The translations under genes were made by a program, and so were the position numbers. Below, in pieces: positions 5,827 through 42,510 of a DNA stretch of 64,000 nucleotides; the stretch's first letter is position 1, and every line of letters starts with the position of its first letter. Source of the stretch: Candidatus Omnitrophota bacterium (lineage in GTDB: Bacteria; Omnitrophota; Gorgyraeia; Duberdicusellales; 4484-171); assembly GCA_018826075.1 (NCBI GenBank), contig JAHKAJ010000024.1, positions 69,910 to 133,909 on the forward strand, read 5' to 3'. Below the pieces are notes generated by a model. The model was given only the letters and a program-made list of their open reading frames with translations. It was not told where the DNA came from and did no database searches.

Positions 5827-8120
5827 TGAAGAATAGCATATCGTATATCGTATGTCGTATATCGTTAATTTGTGTTTTAGTCAGCTTTGCCGCTATAAAT
5901 TGCTTTGGGCAGGAGTCTAATGACTATGTCAAAAAAGGCTGGTCATTGAGAGGGGCTAAAAAATACCAGGAAGCTTATCGGATGATCGAGGAATGCCTTG
6001 AAAAATATTCTGCTGAGGCAGATAAGTTGGCTAAAAAATTGATCGCTTTTCCTCCCGAAGGCAAGGAAACTGATTACCAGGTAATGAACGACGTAGCTGA
6101 ATCTTATTTTATTAAAGCTGAGGTTTTGCGCGATGAAGGAAAAATCGATGAAGCGGTAACTACCTTCCAAATTGTCGTGGATAAGTATCCCTTTGCCCAG
6201 GCTTTTGATCCTCGGGGTTGGTTTTGGAAAATAGCCCAGGCTGCGGCTGATGCGGTTTGCGAAATAACCGGAGTTTGTCCGGAAGAAGAAAATATTGTGG
6301 AAAAAGAAATCCCGGCTGTCCTTTATGACCAGGGTTGCGAGTTTCCGGTAGGTTACTCTAAATACGGAGAGTTTATCGATGAAGGAACTAAGGATTATAA
6401 GTTCAAGGTAAAGGATTCCATTGGTTTATCTAAGGCCGTGGGTGAAGGGATCCACCCTAATACCAGCTCAGTAAAATTTGATCCGGGATTTATTGAAACT
6501 AAAAAGGAACTTTCAACGATCGACCATTGGCAGATCCTAAACAGCCGGAATTCAAAACTTGCCTTTTATAAATGGACTATGGCTCCCGAACCTCCCGGGG
6601 TAAAGCAGTTTCATCTTGCTGAAATTTTGGAACGCAGCGGTTTGATCAAACAAGCGATCAAAGCTTATTATTCGATCTTAGTTCATTTTCCAAAAAGCTA
6701 TGGATGGACTTATTGGCATACCCCTTGGTATGTTGCCAAAGTGGCTCTTTATCGGATTAAGTACCTACTTAAACATCATCCTGAGCTGAGCCTTTCCTTG
6801 GAAGGTGCTGATATCAAGATCTTAAACGGTTACGACAATGATATCCGCAACGATGTTTTTATTGTTAATCCCGGAAGGATAGAGCCGCTTTCTTTTTGGA
6901 AAAAAACTTTATTGTCCAGTGTTTGCTCTGAACGTAAGCGTGATCTCGGTAAAATAGTTGACACCCGGGGTGGAAGCGTCAAGCTGGTTAAATACGCCTC
7001 TGGCGATTGGCAAATGTTTTTAAATGATTCGCCGTTTATGATCAAATCTATCACCTACGGTCCCACCCGGGTCGGAGAATCTCCGGATGACGGCACCATG
7101 CAGAATTGGGGCACCCAGGATTTGAACAATAACCAACTTATCGATGCTCCTTTTGAGGCTTGGGTAGATAAAAATCAGAATAACCTAAAGGATGACGATG
7201 AAAAAACAGTCGGAGATTTCGCTTTATTGAAGGGGATGGGTGCTAATTCGATCCGTCTCTACCATCAGCCTTCAGAATTAAATAAAAAAATTCTTCGACA
7301 AATGCATGGAAAATATGGTATATATATACTACTCGGCGATTTCCTGGGTAAATACACCCTGGGTAGCGGAGCTGACTGGGACCCGGGAACCGACTATGAT
7401 AACCCGGATCAAAAGCAAAAAATGCTTGCTAGTGTTGAGAAAATGGTCCGGGAACACCAGGATGAACCTTATGTGCTGATTTGGTTGTTAGGCAATGAAA
7501 ACGTCTATGGGTTAGGCTGCAACGCTGATAAGAAACCCGAGAGTTTCTTTAAGTTTGCTAATGAAGCAGCCCTCCTGATAAAGTCTTTGGATTCTAAGAA
7601 ACGGCCAGTAGCTATAGTTTCCGGGGATATCCTGTATTTAGATATCTTTGCTAAAAATTGCCCGGATATTGATATCTTTGGCACTAATGCCTACCGGGGC
7701 AAATACGGTTTTTTAGACATTTGGGATGAAGTCCGCCGGGTTTCGGGTAAAGCGGCAATGATAACTGAATATGGGACTTCTTCTTTTTCTAAAGGTTATT
7801 CTTTGAAAGAAAGTGAATTGTACCAGGCTACCTATCATAAAGCCTGTTGGAATGATATCATCTGTAATTCCGCCGGTTTTGGAGCCGGGAATGCTGTGGG
7901 CGGAATAGCCTTTGAATGGCTGGATGAATGGTGGAAGGCTTACAAACCTAACTATCATGATCGAAAGGGCCTTTTTAGCGGCCCGTTTTTAGACGGATAC
8001 ATGCATGAAGAATGGTTGGGACTTTGCGGCCAGGGTGACGGAAGCCAATCGCCTTACTTGAGACATTTGAAAGAAGCTTATTTTACCTATAAAGAGCTTT
8101 GGAATAAAAAGTACGAATAG
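5823..8120 (+). CDS. secreted glycoside hydrolase, clan GH-A TIM barrel with a GH2-like catalytic domain and a ~450-aa N-terminal region of unknown function
   Basis: Signal peptide. Acid/base motif LLGNENVYG and nucleophile motif MITEYGTS resemble LacZ/GUS-type GH2 TIM barrels. It is paralogous to the gene at 9500-10879 (shared FEW(L/S)DEWWK and EEW(L/F)G motifs). Confidence 0.55.
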   Translation: MMKNSISYIVCRISLICVLVSFAAINCFGQESNDYVKKGWSLRGAKKYQEAYRMIEECLEKYSAEADKLAKKLIAFPPEGKETDYQVMNDVAESYFIKAEVLRDEGKIDEAVTTFQIVVDKYPFAQAFDPRGWFWKIAQAAADAVCEITGVCPEEENIVEKEIPAVLYDQGCEFPVGYSKYGEFIDEGTKDYKFKVKDSIGLSKAVGEGIHPNTSSVKFDPGFIETKKELSTIDHWQILNSRNSKLAFYKWTMAPEPPGVKQFHLAEILERSGLIKQAIKAYYSILVHFPKSYGWTYWHTPWYVAKVALYRIKYLLKHHPELSLSLEGADIKILNGYDNDIRNDVFIVNPGRIEPLSFWKKTLLSSVCSERKRDLGKIVDTRGGSVKLVKYASGDWQMFLNDSPFMIKSITYGPTRVGESPDDGTMQNWGTQDLNNNQLIDAPFEAWVDKNQNNLKDDDEKTVGDFALLKGMGANSIRLYHQPSELNKKILRQMHGKYGIYILLGDFLGKYTLGSGADWDPGTDYDNPDQKQKMLASVEKMVREHQDEPYVLIWLLGNENVYGLGCNADKKPESFFKFANEAALLIKSLDSKKRPVAIVSGDILYLDIFAKNCPDIDIFGTNAYRGKYGFLDIWDEVRRVSGKAAMITEYGTSSFSKGYSLKESELYQATYHKACWNDIICNSAGFGAGNAVGGIAFEWLDEWWKAYKPNYHDRKGLFSGPFLDGYMHEEWLGLCGQGDGSQSPYLRHLKEAYFTYKELWNKKYE

Positions 8121-38045: not shown

Positions 38046-39239
38046 TTAGTTTTCCGATATTAAATAGGGAGATTTGGCCTTTTGTATATTTAGAGCGATA
38101 GAAAGCTCTTGTTCTGATAAAAAGCCGGATTCCTTTAGGATCTCACCAAGAGCCACGCCTTTTTTCCAATGAGTCAAAAGGGCTTCGTTAAGTTGTTCGG
38201 CAGAGATTGATTGCCGTTCGACTAAAATCTGGCCCAAAGGTTTATAGAAGCTTTCGGATTTACGTTGGGAAATCTCCGGCTTAGCATCTTTGTTTATTTT
38301 AGTATCCCGGCGGTCAACCATAAACTTACTTCCCGGGATAGCTTTCAGATAACGTTTTATCTCAGCGACCTTCTCATTGAGCTGGATCATGTTTTCAATT
38401 CCAAAAGTATACTCTTTATTTACTACCGCCACCGAAACTGTCATTAAAGGCGTATTAGTAAGTTTACGCGACCGGTCCCGGCTTACCACAAAACCCTGCT
38501 GACGGTCAGTTTCAGAATAATGAAAAGGCATCAGCTGGTCAAAATTCTTAATGAAGTTACGGCAAATCTTTTGATATTTGTCCAAGCTGGAAATAAAAAC
38601 GAAATCATCGCCTCCAATATGGCCGACGAAATCGTCGGGATTGCCGAAATTTCTTACTGCCGCGATCAATAAATAGGCAGTCTGAAGTATCGCCCCGTCT
38701 CCTCTACGGTAACCATAAACATCATTAAAAGATTTAAAATTATCGATATCCAAGTAAGCAAAAGAAAAAGGATTGCCTTTTTTAAATTTTTCATTCAGAA
38801 CATCCTCAAATATCTTGCTTCCGGGAAGGCCGGTTAAAGAGCTGGCATAGATGCTATGTTGAGAACGCCTGACCGCCATCTCGATTCTTATCCGTAAATC
38901 TAATGGGTCCGGTGGTTTTATTAAATAGTCATCCACGCCTTGTTTTAAGTTTAACAACTGGGCTCTTAATTGGCGTTTATTGATTAGGGTTATAACCGGT
39001 ATAAAAGCAGTGGTGAAATTTTCTTTTAACTGCCGGCAGATAGCCAGTTGTTCCTTACGGGCAGATTGGATATCGATGACAATCACATCGGGTGAAATTT
39101 TTTTGATTTTTTCGATATCCTGAGGTTCAGAGAATTGGCGCAAAATAACTTCATAGCCCCAGCCGTCAAAGCAAAAACGCAAAACTTCCTTTAGCTGGTT
39201 GTCAGAAGAAATAATCAGGATTTTCTTAATGGTATCCAT
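38046..39239 (-). CDS. response-regulator receiver, GGDEF diguanylate cyclase and C-terminal MshEN-like c-di-GMP-binding domain
   Basis: REC domain (DIVIIDIQ, Asp pocket). GGDEF domain with GGDDF active-site motif and RGDG. The C-terminus carries two LG(Q/E)IL...(S/L)..(E/Q)L..AL repeats typical of MshEN/T2SSE_N. Confidence 0.75.
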   Translation of the reverse strand: MDTIKKILIISSDNQLKEVLRFCFDGWGYEVILRQFSEPQDIEKIKKISPDVIVIDIQSARKEQLAICRQLKENFTTAFIPVITLINKRQLRAQLLNLKQGVDDYLIKPPDPLDLRIRIEMAVRRSQHSIYASSLTGLPGSKIFEDVLNEKFKKGNPFSFAYLDIDNFKSFNDVYGYRRGDGAILQTAYLLIAAVRNFGNPDDFVGHIGGDDFVFISSLDKYQKICRNFIKNFDQLMPFHYSETDRQQGFVVSRDRSRKLTNTPLMTVSVAVVNKEYTFGIENMIQLNEKVAEIKRYLKAIPGSKFMVDRRDTKINKDAKPEISQRKSESFYKPLGQILVERQSISAEQLNEALLTHWKKGVALGEILKESGFLSEQELSIALNIQKAKSPYLISEN

Positions 39240-39264
39240 CGCGAATATTATAACATCCTACAGG

Positions 39265-39348
39265 TTTTACTTCAACCATGCTGCGCCACCTTCGAGGAGT
39301 CCGCTGGCCTCTATCCTACGGCGGACACCTCGAAGGTGTAGAGTTTTA
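39265..39348. repeat. palindromic repeat element, copy 2
   Basis: TTTTACTTCAACC...CACCTTCGAGG-AGTCCGCTGGCCTCTATCCTACGGCGGA-CACCTCGAAGGTG-TAGAGTTTTA. Both stem arms carry the compensatory A-to-T / T-to-A change relative to copies 1 and 3. Confidence 0.6.
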
Positions 39349-39352
39349 GAAT

Positions 39353-42300
39353 TTATTCTTTTTTTGGTTTCTTTTGTTCCTCGGATATTTTTTGGGCGAT
39401 TTCCTTAGGCACCGGAATATACTTTTTAAAGTGCATTGAACAACTGGCCCGGCCGCTGGAAAGTGACCGTAGATTAGTGACATGGCCGAACATCTCAGCC
39501 AAAGGAGCTTCAGCCAGGATCTGTTTCTGGCCGCCTTTAGTCTCCATGCCCAAAATTTTACCTCTTCGGGAACAGATATAACCGACAATGCTGCTGGTGT
39601 ATTCTTCGGGAGTGAGGATCTCTAAATCCATGCAAGGTTCAATAAGGGTTGGCTCGCACTTTAAAAAAGCTTCACGAAAACAGCCCAAAGCCGCAAGCTT
39701 AAAGGCAATCTCTGAAGAATCGACCTCATGATAGGAACCATCGATAAGGTTTATTTTAATATCCACTACTGGATAACCGGCATAAGCGCCTTTCTTCATG
39801 GCCTCAATAAGGCCCTTTTGAACTGCCGGAATAAAATTTTTAGGTATAGCCCCACCTTTAATGCTGTCAGTAAATTCAAATCCGGCTGCCGGCTGGTTAG
39901 GAGAAAGCTCAAAAACTACGTGGCCGTACTGACCTCGTCCTCCGCTTTGTTTAACATGCTTATATTCCTGAGTTGCTGAGCCGGAAATTGTCTCTTTATA
40001 GGCTACTTTGGGCTGACCCACCGTAGCCGAAACCTTAAATTCTTCTTTGAGACGCTCAACAATTATTTCCAAATGCAGTTCGCCCATTCCCGAAAGAATT
40101 GTCTCAAGAGTCTCTTCATCAGTGTGAGCGGTAAAGGTCGGGTCTTCTTCGGTAAGTTTAGCGATTCCTTTAGCCAACCGGTCCTGATCAGTGCGGCTTT
40201 CCGGTTTGATGCTTATCGAAACTACTGGATCGGAAAAAACTATTGATTCAAGCAGTATGGGGTTTTCTGAATTGCAAAGAGTATCTCCAGTTAAAGTAAA
40301 GTTCAACCCGACTATTGCTCCGATATCACCGGCAAACATAACGTCAACGTTTTCCCTCTGGTTGGCATGCATGCGGACAATCCTACCCACGCGTTCTTTT
40401 TTATTTTTAGTCGCGTTTAGAATATAACTACCGGCCTTTAAAAACCCCGAATAAACCCGTGCGTAAACCAACTTGCCTACGTGTTGATCAGCCTGAACCT
40501 TAAAAGCTAAGGCCGAAAAAGTTTCCTCATCCTGAGGCTTACGTTCTAATTTTTTTTCCGGGTCATCAGGGTCATTGCCGATCACTGCCGGTACTTGGGC
40601 CGGCGACGGCAAATAAACAGTAATCGCATCAAGCAAATCCTGGATACCTTTGTTTTTTAAAGCTGCTCCGCATAAAACCGGTATGATCTTATTTTCAACT
40701 GTCGCCTGATGCAGAGCTTTCTTAATCTCCTCGTTAGTAATTGTATCTTCTGACTGAAGATATTTTTCCATCAGTTGGTTGTCAAAAGAAGCAACTTTTT
40801 CTATTAAGCTGTGGCGGTATTGTTTAGCCAACTCCTTGTCGTTTTCGGGTATTTCTTCCAGCTTGATATCTTTGCCGAAGGAATTCTCATCATAAAATTT
40901 AGCCTTCATCTCAATAAGGTCGATCACACCCTTAAACTCAGTTTCTTTGCCGACCGGTATTTGTAAAGCTACGGCATTAGCCCCGAGAGTAGTGACTATT
41001 TCCTGAAAAACTTTAAAAAAATCAGCACCCAGTCTGTCCATTTTGTTAATAAAGGCTATTTTGGGGACTTTATATTTAATCGATTGGCGCCAGACAGTCT
41101 CGGTTTGTGATTCAACTCCGCCTACCGCACAAAATACTGCGACTGCTCCGTCAAGAACCCTCAAAGATCGTTCTACCTCAGCGGTAAAATCAACGTGGCC
41201 AGGAGTATCAATGATCGTGATCTGGCAATCAGCCCAATTACAGGTAGTTGCTGCTGAAGTTATGGTAATGCCTCTTTCCTGTTCTTGTTTCATCCAATCC
41301 ATCTGGGCAGCTCCGTCATGGACTTCGCCGATTTTATGAGAACGGCCGGTATAAAAAAGAATCCTTTCAGTGAGCGTAGTCTTTCCAGCGTCAATATGGG
41401 CCATAATGCCGATATTGCGGATTTTATCCAAAGTTATTTTTCTTTCCGGAGGCGGTTCTTCTTTTTTCTTAACCATCTCCGTCTTGACTTCCGGTTCGGG
41501 TTTAGCTATCTCTTCCTCTGCCGGTAGCTGGATCGGGGCCGGATTTTCAGCTAATGGTTCTTCAGCTGGAACTTCCAAAGGCGGACTTTCTTCAGGCAAC
41601 TCGGGAATTGCCGGTTTTTCTTCCGGGTTTTGCGGTTCAGGCGTTAAAGTAACGGTACGCTCAAGACCCCGCAACTGGTTAAGAATACGGATCCTTTCCT
41701 CATCAATTTTTTTTGTTTCTTCCTCTTTGAGCGTCAACTCCTTTTTTTTGATTTCCAGTTCGTCTCGCAAATTTTCACATTGATTTTCCAACAAAGAATA
41801 ATCTTCTTTGGAAATCCAGCCGCTTTGACGCTCTTGTTCCTTAAGTTTGGTCAAATCGGCCAGATATTGGTTTTTTTCTTTAGCTAGATCCTGCATCTTT
41901 TGGCCCTGCTCTTTGGCTTTAGTCTCTAATAAGATTATTTTCTCATTTAGCTGGCTGAGGTTTTCCTCTTTTATCCCGATCACTTCTTCGGTTTGCTTAA
42001 GGTCCTTCTTAAGCTGGACATTATTGGAAAATTCTTTTTCCAACTGTTTTTCGGTTTCAATGAATTTAAACTTTAAAGTTTCATAAGGGCCTTTGCCTTT
42101 TTTCAAAATATCCTGTTGGCTATTCAGCCATTTTTTATTTCGTTGCAGTTCATCAGTCAACTCTTTGACCTTTTGGCTGCTGGCCTGATATTTTTGCTGT
42201 AAAGCCAAGTTATCAGTCTTAGCCTTTTCCAAAGAAATGTTTTCATTTCTAACTTCTAACATTTCCCGTTTTAAAATTTTAACATTTTCATGAAGGGTGA

Positions 42301-42439
42301 GGATTTTTTGAGCCTCGGGGCTGGACTTGGAAAGGAATCCCCGGCTAAGCAATTTTTTCGGGTCTAAAGAATCGTCGGTATTTACCGCGTAAAGAACCAG
42401 GGCTACCGCTACTCCGATAAAAAGAAAAATTACCACCAT
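39353..42439 (-). CDS. elongation factor G homolog fused in-frame to an N-terminal TM anchor, ~250-aa coiled coil and Pro/Glu-rich linker
   Basis: Residues ~340-1028 are a full EF-G ([14 protein letters not shown], domain [11 protein letters not shown]). Residues 1-330 are a hydrophobic N-terminus, Lys/Glu/Gln-rich heptad sequence and a PEPE linker, with no stop codon in the frame. An internal Met ~20 aa before the G-domain could be an alternative start. Confidence 0.7.
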
Positions 42440-42510
42440 GCTAAAATTATATCATATCTTTACAATAAACAAAGTCTTGAGGGAAAATTTATCTGTGTTA
42501 TAATGCATCT

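Follow-up and report, generated by a model that had tools for sequence, protein, structure and literature searches.

The window analyzed here, a stretch of 64,000 nucleotides from a Candidatus Omnitrophota bacterium (GenBank assembly GCA_018826075.1, contig JAHKAJ010000024.1, positions 69,910 to 133,909 of the forward strand), encodes on its minus strand, at 39353..42439, a long form of elongation factor G (EF-G). The gene is a single, uninterrupted open reading frame (ORF) of 1028 amino acids that begins with ATG, its coordinates including the stop codon. An in-frame TAA lies 9 nucleotides 5′ of the ATG; the ORF is therefore not extendable. The product joins a predicted transmembrane (TM) anchor, a coiled coil, and a linker to an EF-G, and a search with the full-length protein returned more than 100 proteins of 1000–1076 amino acids that cover 93–100% of the query at 52–73% identity. 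From these and the further sequence comparisons described below, we conclude that this predicted membrane-tethered EF-G paralog is conserved in, and specific to, the Omnitrophota.

An earlier note on this DNA had described a complete EF-G preceded in frame by about 330 residues, made up of a hydrophobic N-terminal helix, a heptad-like stretch rich in Lys, Glu, and Gln, and a Pro/Glu linker, and had judged this extension too long to be open by chance and to be under coding selection. The description held up in each of these parts. All 332 codons ahead of the EF-G part are open, for which the chance expectation is about 2e-9 at 42.7% GC, and 96 loci share near-invariant residues in the extension and indels in multiples of 7 amino acids.

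In principle, an upstream membrane-protein gene might have been joined to fusA by a frameshift, by chimeric assembly, or by faulty gene calling. The identical 1028-amino acid protein is, however, encoded on an independently assembled contig (Logan SRR10598175), and a variant with three substitutions is present in JGI/ENA data, which excludes a frameshift or a chimeric assembly. The uninterrupted architecture is common to the 96 loci, which come from many samples, and stand-alone relatives of the N-terminal module do not adjoin fusA. Broken genes do occur in metagenome-assembled genomes (MAGs), as two long-type loci, L080 (start near 7900) and L123 (near 4900), illustrate: their ORFs, of 413 and 392 amino acids, end about 50 residues into the G domain, and they could be pseudogenes or sequencing errors. 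The recurrence of the intact fusion already refutes an artefact at the window's locus, and we consider one next to impossible. The earlier note had named a frameshift or stop between the two parts, or orthologs encoded as two genes, as grounds for giving up the fusion; no such frameshift or stop is seen, and the orthologs carry the same fusion.

The C-terminal part contains the five domains of EF-G in order across residues 339–1017, all encoded on the minus strand. The G domain with its G′ insert occupies residues 339–612 (40604..41425; Pfam PF00009, E = 6e-67) and carries the G1, DTPGH, and G4 NKMD motifs. It is followed by domain II at residues 641–723 (40271..40519; PF22042 and PF03144), domain III at residues 735–808 (40016..40237; PF14492), domain IV, whose tip loops are invariant alignment columns, at residues 810–928 (39656..40012; PF03764), and domain V, which contains K972, at residues 932–1017 (39389..39646; PF00679). 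The NCBIfam equivalog model for EF-G, TIGR00484, scored 1039.4 bits against a cut-off of 659.4, with residues 333–1023 matching positions 3–690 of the 691 in the model. The protein also aligned end to end with the EF-Gs of Staphylococcus aureus, Escherichia coli, and Thermus thermophilus at 824–842 bits, with no insertion in switch I. In an alignment of 120 homologs, the P-loop, the RGITIT of switch I, the DTPGH of switch II, NKMD, and the G5 region (G591 and N596) were invariant, so that the full G1–G5 set, including the catalytic His of switch II, is present. The two loops of domain IV were likewise invariant, the first at Q831, G833, G834, G836, Q837, Y838, and H840 and the second at D900, G901, S902, H904, V906, D907, S908, and S909. 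The EF-G moiety thus looks fully functional, and the strict conservation of its translocation-specific residues argues for real EF-G activity.

Models for other translational GTPases fitted less well. Those for EF-G2/EFG II (NF009377, 487.6 against a cut-off of 890; NF058620, 489.7 against 1000) and for tetracycline ribosomal protection proteins (NF012153, 399.6 against 775) remained below their cut-offs, as did the RF3 model, and the LepA and TypA models fell far below theirs. The spdEFG1 type of Spirochaetes, Planctomycetes, and delta-proteobacteria is marked by a three-residue KDG insertion in switch I (PMC3150367), which is absent from the window protein, as it aligns with S. aureus EF-G without a gap. 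By these sequence and domain tests we assign the protein to the EFG I type, from which it departs in genomic context only, and not to spdEFG1/2, EFG II/EF-G2, or the ribosomal protection proteins.

We modeled the N-terminal part with AlphaFold, both alone (with 35 homologs) and in the full-length protein (with 120 homologs), and the two models agreed. The putative TM helix spans residues 2–23 (42371..42436), with a hydrophobic core at residues 2–20 whose Kyte–Doolittle mean is 3.13 over 19 residues; AlphaFold gave a helix at residues 2–23 or 2–19. A basic juxtamembrane segment at residues 24–40 (42320..42370) appears disordered, with a predicted local distance difference test score (pLDDT) below 50 in both models. 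Three long helices follow at pLDDT 80–97, rich in Lys, Glu, Leu, and Gln, each with a peak of hydrophobic power at a period of 3.5 residues. Helix 1 covers residues 41–115 (42095..42319; pLDDT 86–95) and contains the near-invariant W104 in an R/N-K-K-W-L/V motif. Helix 2, at residues 118–206 (41822..42088), carries KEKEL..EFSKNV.L with K129, F137, and V141. The break ahead of helix 3, which spans residues 211–263 (41651..41809), bears the motif S-(E/G)-W-(V/I)-x-K-x-(E/D)-(Y/F) around W208, K211, and L217. Across the 120-sequence alignment, these seven positions and P331 were near-invariant, and the motifs read R-x-K-x-W-(V/L), K-E-K-E-L-x-x-E-F-S-K-N-V-x-L, and S-(E/G)-W-(V/I)-x-K-x-(E/D)-(F/Y). 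Indels within the coiled-coil helices of the family come in units of 7 residues, and such seven-residue indels fall in helix 2.

An acidic Glu/Pro linker, predicted to be disordered, occupies residues 264–332 (41444..41650) and ends with the conserved P331. Its pLDDT was 29–36 in the full-length model, in which the stretch at residues 261–325 stayed near 30 and the EF-G fold, from about residue 333, was mostly above 90. Residues 264–329 alone hold 18 Glu and 16 Pro in 66 positions. Among 92 relatives the linker had a median length of 69 residues (range 43–121), with 28% Glu, 14% Pro, and a net charge of −0.17 per residue. As a single extended rod of three helices, the modeled stalk would measure about 30 nm; with the helices folded back on each other, it would measure about 11–13 nm. 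The linker would add a flexible leash of several nanometers, up to about 25 nm when fully stretched. The first 332 residues had no match in Pfam, PDB sequences, or PDB folds beyond generic coiled coils. With a predicted TM helix followed by positive charge, and with heptad-periodic helices behind it, the N-terminal part belongs to the N-terminally membrane-anchored coiled-coil proteins, a class that is architectural and not a homology family.

The hydrophobic N-terminus might also be read as a signal peptide or as an N-in anchor, with EF-G exported to moonlight at the cell surface. The hydrophobic run of about 19–20 residues starts at residue 1–2, and there is no charged n-region before it. 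In the family, the residues ahead of the TM helix carry a net charge of about 0 and the 20 residues after it one of +2.6, and 83% of 92 proteins obey the positive-inside rule. This distribution is the signature of an N-out/C-in anchor and not of a signal peptide; moreover, the conserved GTPase motifs would be useless away from GTP and ribosomes. Display on the surface is therefore highly improbable, and we infer from the predicted N-out/C-in topology that the stalk, linker, and EF-G face the cytoplasm.

Few of the full-length matches were named, and these were called 'Candidatus Omnitrophica' or plain 'elongation factor G'. Scans of GTDB species genomes and JGI metagenomes, with the EF-G part of the protein as the query, gave 58 long-form loci at first and 96 in all (about 1000–1100 amino acids), with record titles that were mostly Candidatus Omnitrophota; one came from Ca. 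Susulua stagnicola, placed in the Omnitrophota by NCBI taxonomy. A protein search with the N-terminal 333 residues alone returned no match, not even the identical protein. We treated this as a false negative for a coiled-coil, low-complexity query, as the full-length and profile searches found the family. The only short Omnitrophica match of the first search, a 696-residue 'Omnitrophica EF-G' (P0061), had been considered as a short ortholog and was rejected: it begins with CTG and its frame runs on, without a stop, to where the contig ends, which marks it as a long form cut short.

The same scans found EF-G genes of canonical length (693–703 amino acids, about 698), and long and short forms co-occur in seven genomes, which bears out the earlier note's view of the gene as an EF-G paralog. 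The two forms are encoded on one strand and no more than 10 kb apart in L011 (5251-12097), a complete chromosome (CP070797.1), and in L021 (6427-12091), L022 (439-7635), L048 (6577-12088), and L068 (76-12091). In L021 and L048 the two genes are immediate neighbors, with the order reversed between these loci, an arrangement that suggests an origin by tandem duplication. In CAZVQU01 and CAYVYJ01, the nearest relatives of the window, they are on different contigs. Long and short forms of one genome are 65–72% identical, similar to the identity between genomes; thus, gene conversion is not keeping the copies alike. A neighbor-joining (NJ) tree, rooted on S. aureus EF-G and drawn without bootstrap values, comprised 96 long and 41 short forms together with 14 operon-type EF-Gs. 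Short and long forms grouped together to the exclusion of the operon-type sequences, and every one of the long forms fell into one clade. In the first data set of 86 sequences, NJ bootstrap values were 70% for monophyly of the short and 32% for that of the long forms, so that the exact rooting of the short/long tree is not firm. A short-form EF-G of Omnitrophota type was also seen in L066 (JAIWAR010000002.1), on a 70-kb contig binned in a 'Methanosarcinales archaeon' MAG, probably through bin contamination. Some Omnitrophota are epibionts or predators of Methanosaeta, which makes this record notable.

Neither form resides in the rpsL-rpsG-fusA-tuf (str) operon, where the primary EFG I copy is usually found (PMC3150367). 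None of the long (96) or short (41) loci had an S12, S7, or EF-Tu motif within 6–10 kb, and the earlier note had already placed the window's gene outside such a context. The same patterns found rpsL, rpsG, or tuf beside 13–14 of 15 operon-type matches (60–62% identity; L150 with the S12 motif only), so that the patterns work. An S12-like motif in L061 proved to be fortuitous, being read from the antisense strand of a transporter gene. A third, str-operon EF-G of Omnitrophota was sought in the metagenome scan, where the operon-type matches (L150–L164) were related to sequences of Actinomycetota and Firmicutes and not to those of Omnitrophota. A preprint describes several complete Omnitrophota chromosomes with S12, S7, EF-G, EF-Tu, and S10 in order (10.64898/2026.06.07.730766).

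Comparison of the two forms for functional specialization of the EF-G moiety gave a single diagnostic position: K972 in domain V of the long forms is Q in the short forms. With only one fixed difference, there is no sign that the two copies have split functions. The long forms are slightly more variable (mean pairwise identity 71%, against 73–76% for the short forms), mainly in G′, where column entropy is 1.2–1.4 in the long and 0.65–0.9 in the short forms (EF-G alignment columns 150–300, about residues 490–640 of the window protein).

The earlier note had asked whether an internal start, at a Met about 20 residues before the G domain, is used. We considered such a start, which would give a soluble product, and dismissed it. 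This Met is not a conserved feature, as only 17 of 120 proteins contain a Met anywhere in the 40 residues that precede R-N-I-G-I. Among 57 long genes, 30 have a Pro codon at the position that aligns with the ATG of the short paralog, the ancestral start; only 5 have an in-frame ATG within 25 codons, and only one has an in-frame ATG, GTG, or TTG there that is preceded by a Shine–Dalgarno (SD)-like motif. The long and short forms also differ at their 5′ ends. A strong AGGAG or GGAGG lies upstream of 24 of 25 short-form genes, whereas 26 of 57 long-form genes have no SD sequence and most of the rest have weak ones; in this survey the window's gene had none. Reading of the sequence revealed an extended −10-like element, TGATATAAT (42446..42454, minus strand), that ends 7 nucleotides before the ATG. 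The promoter scan did not list this site, for want of a matching −35. Given the element so close to the ATG and no SD sequence, the long EF-G mRNA may perhaps be leaderless.

What might such a protein do? The reading that we favor, and regard as probable by a modest measure, is that it is a catalytically competent EF-G paralog at the cytoplasmic face of the membrane that serves membrane-proximal ribosomes. A duplicate of an extra-operon EF-G gene would have become fused to a membrane-anchored coiled-coil module; N-out/C-in insertion would put stalk, linker, and EF-G on the cytoplasmic side; and a translocase and recycling factor would thereby be confined to a shell a few tens of nanometers deep under the inner membrane. 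Membrane-associated ribosomes, for example those engaged in co-translational insertion or export, would meet a higher local concentration of EF-G, which would leave the bulk of the cytoplasm to the short paralog. Since most Omnitrophota cells measure about 0.2 µm across (PMC10066038), the sub-membrane shell would make up a large share of the cytoplasm. The phylum is also notable for giant membrane-associated or exported proteins (bioRxiv 10.1101/2023.11.21.568195; 10.64898/2026.06.07.730766), which make a need for a membrane-proximal EF-G plausible; no genomic linkage of the long EF-G loci to giant-protein genes was found.

Several points weigh against this reading. Near the 57 long-form loci surveyed, there was no universal neighbor and no Sec, YidC, or SRP gene. 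The phylum may possess a third, operon-borne EF-G. The weak or absent SD sequences suggest that expression of the long form may be low or specialized. Finally, the variable G′ of the long forms hints at a relaxed or altered interplay with the L7/L12 stalk of the ribosome.

Some of these features would also suit a ribosome anchor, in which the EF-G moiety is a GTP-dependent, ribosome-binding handle that docks, sequesters, or hibernates ribosomes at the membrane and in which translocation is secondary. A tether would hinder the fast, multiple-turnover cycling that elongation needs, the long-form genes lack the strong SD sequence of the housekeeping-like short copy, G′ is more variable in the long forms, and the soluble paralog is available for bulk translation. 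Mere binding, however, would not need the catalytic and translocation motifs, all of which, from the switch II His to the domain IV loops, are invariant in 120 sequences, and only a single residue is fixed differently from the short copy. We consider such an anchor unlikely.

The linker raises yet another explanation, namely that EF-G is parked at the membrane as a stored precursor and is freed into the cytoplasm by regulated proteolysis within the Glu/Pro segment. A long disordered linker (pLDDT about 30) would be an accessible protease substrate, its length (43–121 residues) and sequence vary freely, as they would in a spacer or cleavage region, and in the clade of the window the second gene downstream encodes an M48 peptidase. 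That neighbor is nevertheless confined to one sub-clade, no conserved cleavage motif was seen in the linker, and simple parking would have no need of the conserved Trp motifs in the coiled coil. Release by proteolysis thus seems to us quite unlikely.

The favored reading, that of an EF-G working at the membrane, could be extended to a spatial partitioning of elongation. Soluble EF-G would serve the cytoplasm, and a tethered, otherwise equivalent, possibly dimeric EF-G would serve the sub-membrane zone of insertion and export, possibly including the giant surface proteins of 10,000 to over 80,000 amino acids. A ribosome that makes one of these giants has to stay at the membrane for very long. 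We offer this extension tentatively and hold it to be rather doubtful; if it were true, this would be the first core elongation factor to be compartmentalized by an integral membrane anchor.

The N-terminal module has a life of its own outside EF-G. A profile built from 35 N-termini was searched against 1.84 billion representative proteins and gave 537 matches at E ≤ 1e-3. Judged by length, many of these are probably N-terminal fragments of long EF-Gs, and the few fragments inspected (257–749 amino acids) end in the linker or inside the EF-G part. The matches also include a coherent set of proteins of about 210–235 amino acids (P0202–P0269) in which the TM helix and a coiled coil with Trp motifs are followed by a stop; their motifs are W...KE, E-(Y/F)-S-x-x-L-R-L-E-R-E-L, and W-V-(A/S)-K-x-E-Y. 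The three stand-alone genes examined are complete ORFs (among them L082:8001-8684 and L083:2983-3660), and in the two with flanking sequence the gene is not adjacent to fusA. Response-regulator and tetratricopeptide repeat (TPR) genes are the neighbors, together with a CBS-GAF-SpoIIE gene in L082; on a 1.17-Mb contig the stand-alone gene lies between TPR/response-regulator genes and a CBS-GAF-SpoIIE gene. No Pfam family covers these proteins. On sequence evidence we regard the module as an independent, unannotated family of putatively membrane-anchored coiled-coil domains with stand-alone members of about 225 amino acids. The simplest history of the long form would be duplication of an extra-operon EF-G gene and then fusion of one copy to this TM–coiled-coil module.

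Three more distant relatives, P0201, P0209, and P0246, have a similar N-terminus, with a TM helix and repeated coiled coils, and MshEN as their last type of domain or followed by PilZ. The PilZ domain was identified by Pfam in P0201, and by eye P0246 looks the same. The likeness to the EF-G module covers the TM helix and the first helices only and may be partly compositional. MshEN and PilZ are types of domain that bind c-di-GMP. These proteins allow the view that the function of the long form resides in its coiled-coil module, which would be a membrane scaffold or part of a cytoskeleton, as the stand-alone relatives presumably are, and that EF-G was co-opted as a non-translational GTPase switch. 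The module does exist alone, related modules are fused to the two c-di-GMP-binding domains, and in the clade of the window the gene after the long EF-G encodes REC-GGDEF. An EF-G without a ribosomal task should, however, diverge at the sites of ribosome contact and tRNA mimicry, yet the EF-G part has 54% identity with S. aureus EF-G and can hardly be told apart from the short paralog. A scaffold of this kind is, we think, very unlikely.

Compared with canonical EF-Gs, such as S. aureus FusA (PDB 2xex) and those of E. coli (4v7d and 7n2c) and T. thermophilus (1dar and 4v5f), the long form has the same five domains plus G′ at about 54% identity, but it has about 332 extra N-terminal residues, is encoded outside rpsL-rpsG-fusA-tuf, and coexists with a short paralog. 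Duplicates of EFG I outside the operon are known (PMC3150367); they are likewise of EFG I type and arose by lineage-specific duplication, but they are of normal length, and no membrane anchor or N-terminal extension is mentioned for them. A second EF-G-family gene in the genome is also a feature of the split-function or divergent paralogs spdEFG1/spdEFG2, mitochondrial EFG1/EFG2, and EFG II/EF-G2. The long form scores 842 bits with the EF-G of S. aureus, against 606 with mitochondrial EFG1 and 484 with RRF2mt.

RNase Y of Firmicutes follows the same logic as the long EF-G, with an N-terminal TM anchor, a helical or coiled-coil region, and a catalytic domain on the cytoplasmic face (PMC7029143, PMC4608709). 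Its catalytic part is a KH-HD nuclease that shares neither sequence nor domains with the long EF-G; as an analogy only, RNase Y would be the nearest architectural counterpart. LepA/EF4 and the SRP receptor FtsY are GTPases that act on the ribosome and are enriched at the membrane, where they associate peripherally or through an amphipathic helix, and FtsY has an acidic, disordered N-terminal A domain. The long EF-G differs from both in its predicted integral N-terminal TM helix and a coiled-coil stalk of about 220 residues. Two surveys of EF-G and translational GTPases (PMC4342817, PMC3150367) make no mention of membranes, transmembrane segments, or coiled coils in EF-G, and the main paper on Omnitrophota genomics (PMC10066038) does not mention EF-G. 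Literature searches that combined EF-G with Omnitrophota or Omnitrophica, or with the terms transmembrane, membrane-anchored, or coiled-coil, returned nothing relevant. We thus found no published description of a membrane-tethered EF-G paralog.

To our knowledge, and in the two surveys just cited, translational GTPases are treated as freely diffusing cytoplasmic factors. A tethered EF-G with a soluble twin, essentially one fixed residue apart, would amount to a test, set up by nature, of whether it matters where an elongation factor is located. Such a pair would also give a handle on how translation is organized in some of the smallest known cells, about 0.2 µm in size, and may bear on how giant envelope proteins are made and exported; specialists in translation and those who study the cell biology of ultra-small bacteria may find it of interest. 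At the level of annotation, pipelines label both genes 'elongation factor G', which hides the difference, and analyses of marker genes and copy numbers in Omnitrophota MAGs should allow for EF-G paralogy.

The neighborhood of the long-form gene varies between sub-clades. In the window, a REC-GGDEF gene at 38046..39239 on the minus strand is separated from it by 113 nucleotides (39240–39352). The earlier note had the order reversed, with EF-G directly downstream of a REC-GGDEF-MshEN gene; both genes are on the minus strand, and REC-GGDEF is thus downstream of EF-G. Pfam MshEN had no match in the REC-GGDEF protein at E ≤ 0.01. The last 70 or so residues of that protein resemble residues 449–512 of P0201, reaching the start of its MshEN domain (BLASTP E = 2e-5). 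The gap between the two genes contains a sigma-70-like site, TTGAAG-17-TATAAT with an upstream TG, at 39275–39247, and the REC-GGDEF gene may have its own promoter.

In the window and its closest relatives (71–73% identity), the gene order is YqeY, in some cases CBS, long EF-G, REC-GGDEF, MscS, and M48 peptidase. The REC-GGDEF neighborhood is conserved only in the sub-clade of the window. Recurrent neighbors, each at about 7–11 of 57 loci and only in sub-clades, are a cyclophilin, a RarA-like AAA ATPase, PheS/PheT, YqeY, and REC-GGDEF. The cyclophilin gene, which encodes a signal peptide, lies directly downstream of the long EF-G gene at about 10 loci, with a gap of about 4 nucleotides (for example, L064:12078-12629). 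The gene for the RarA/MgsA-like AAA ATPase lies directly upstream by about 7 nucleotides, also at about 10 loci (for example, L014:7726-9063), and PheS and PheT occur further upstream in 9–10 long-form loci.

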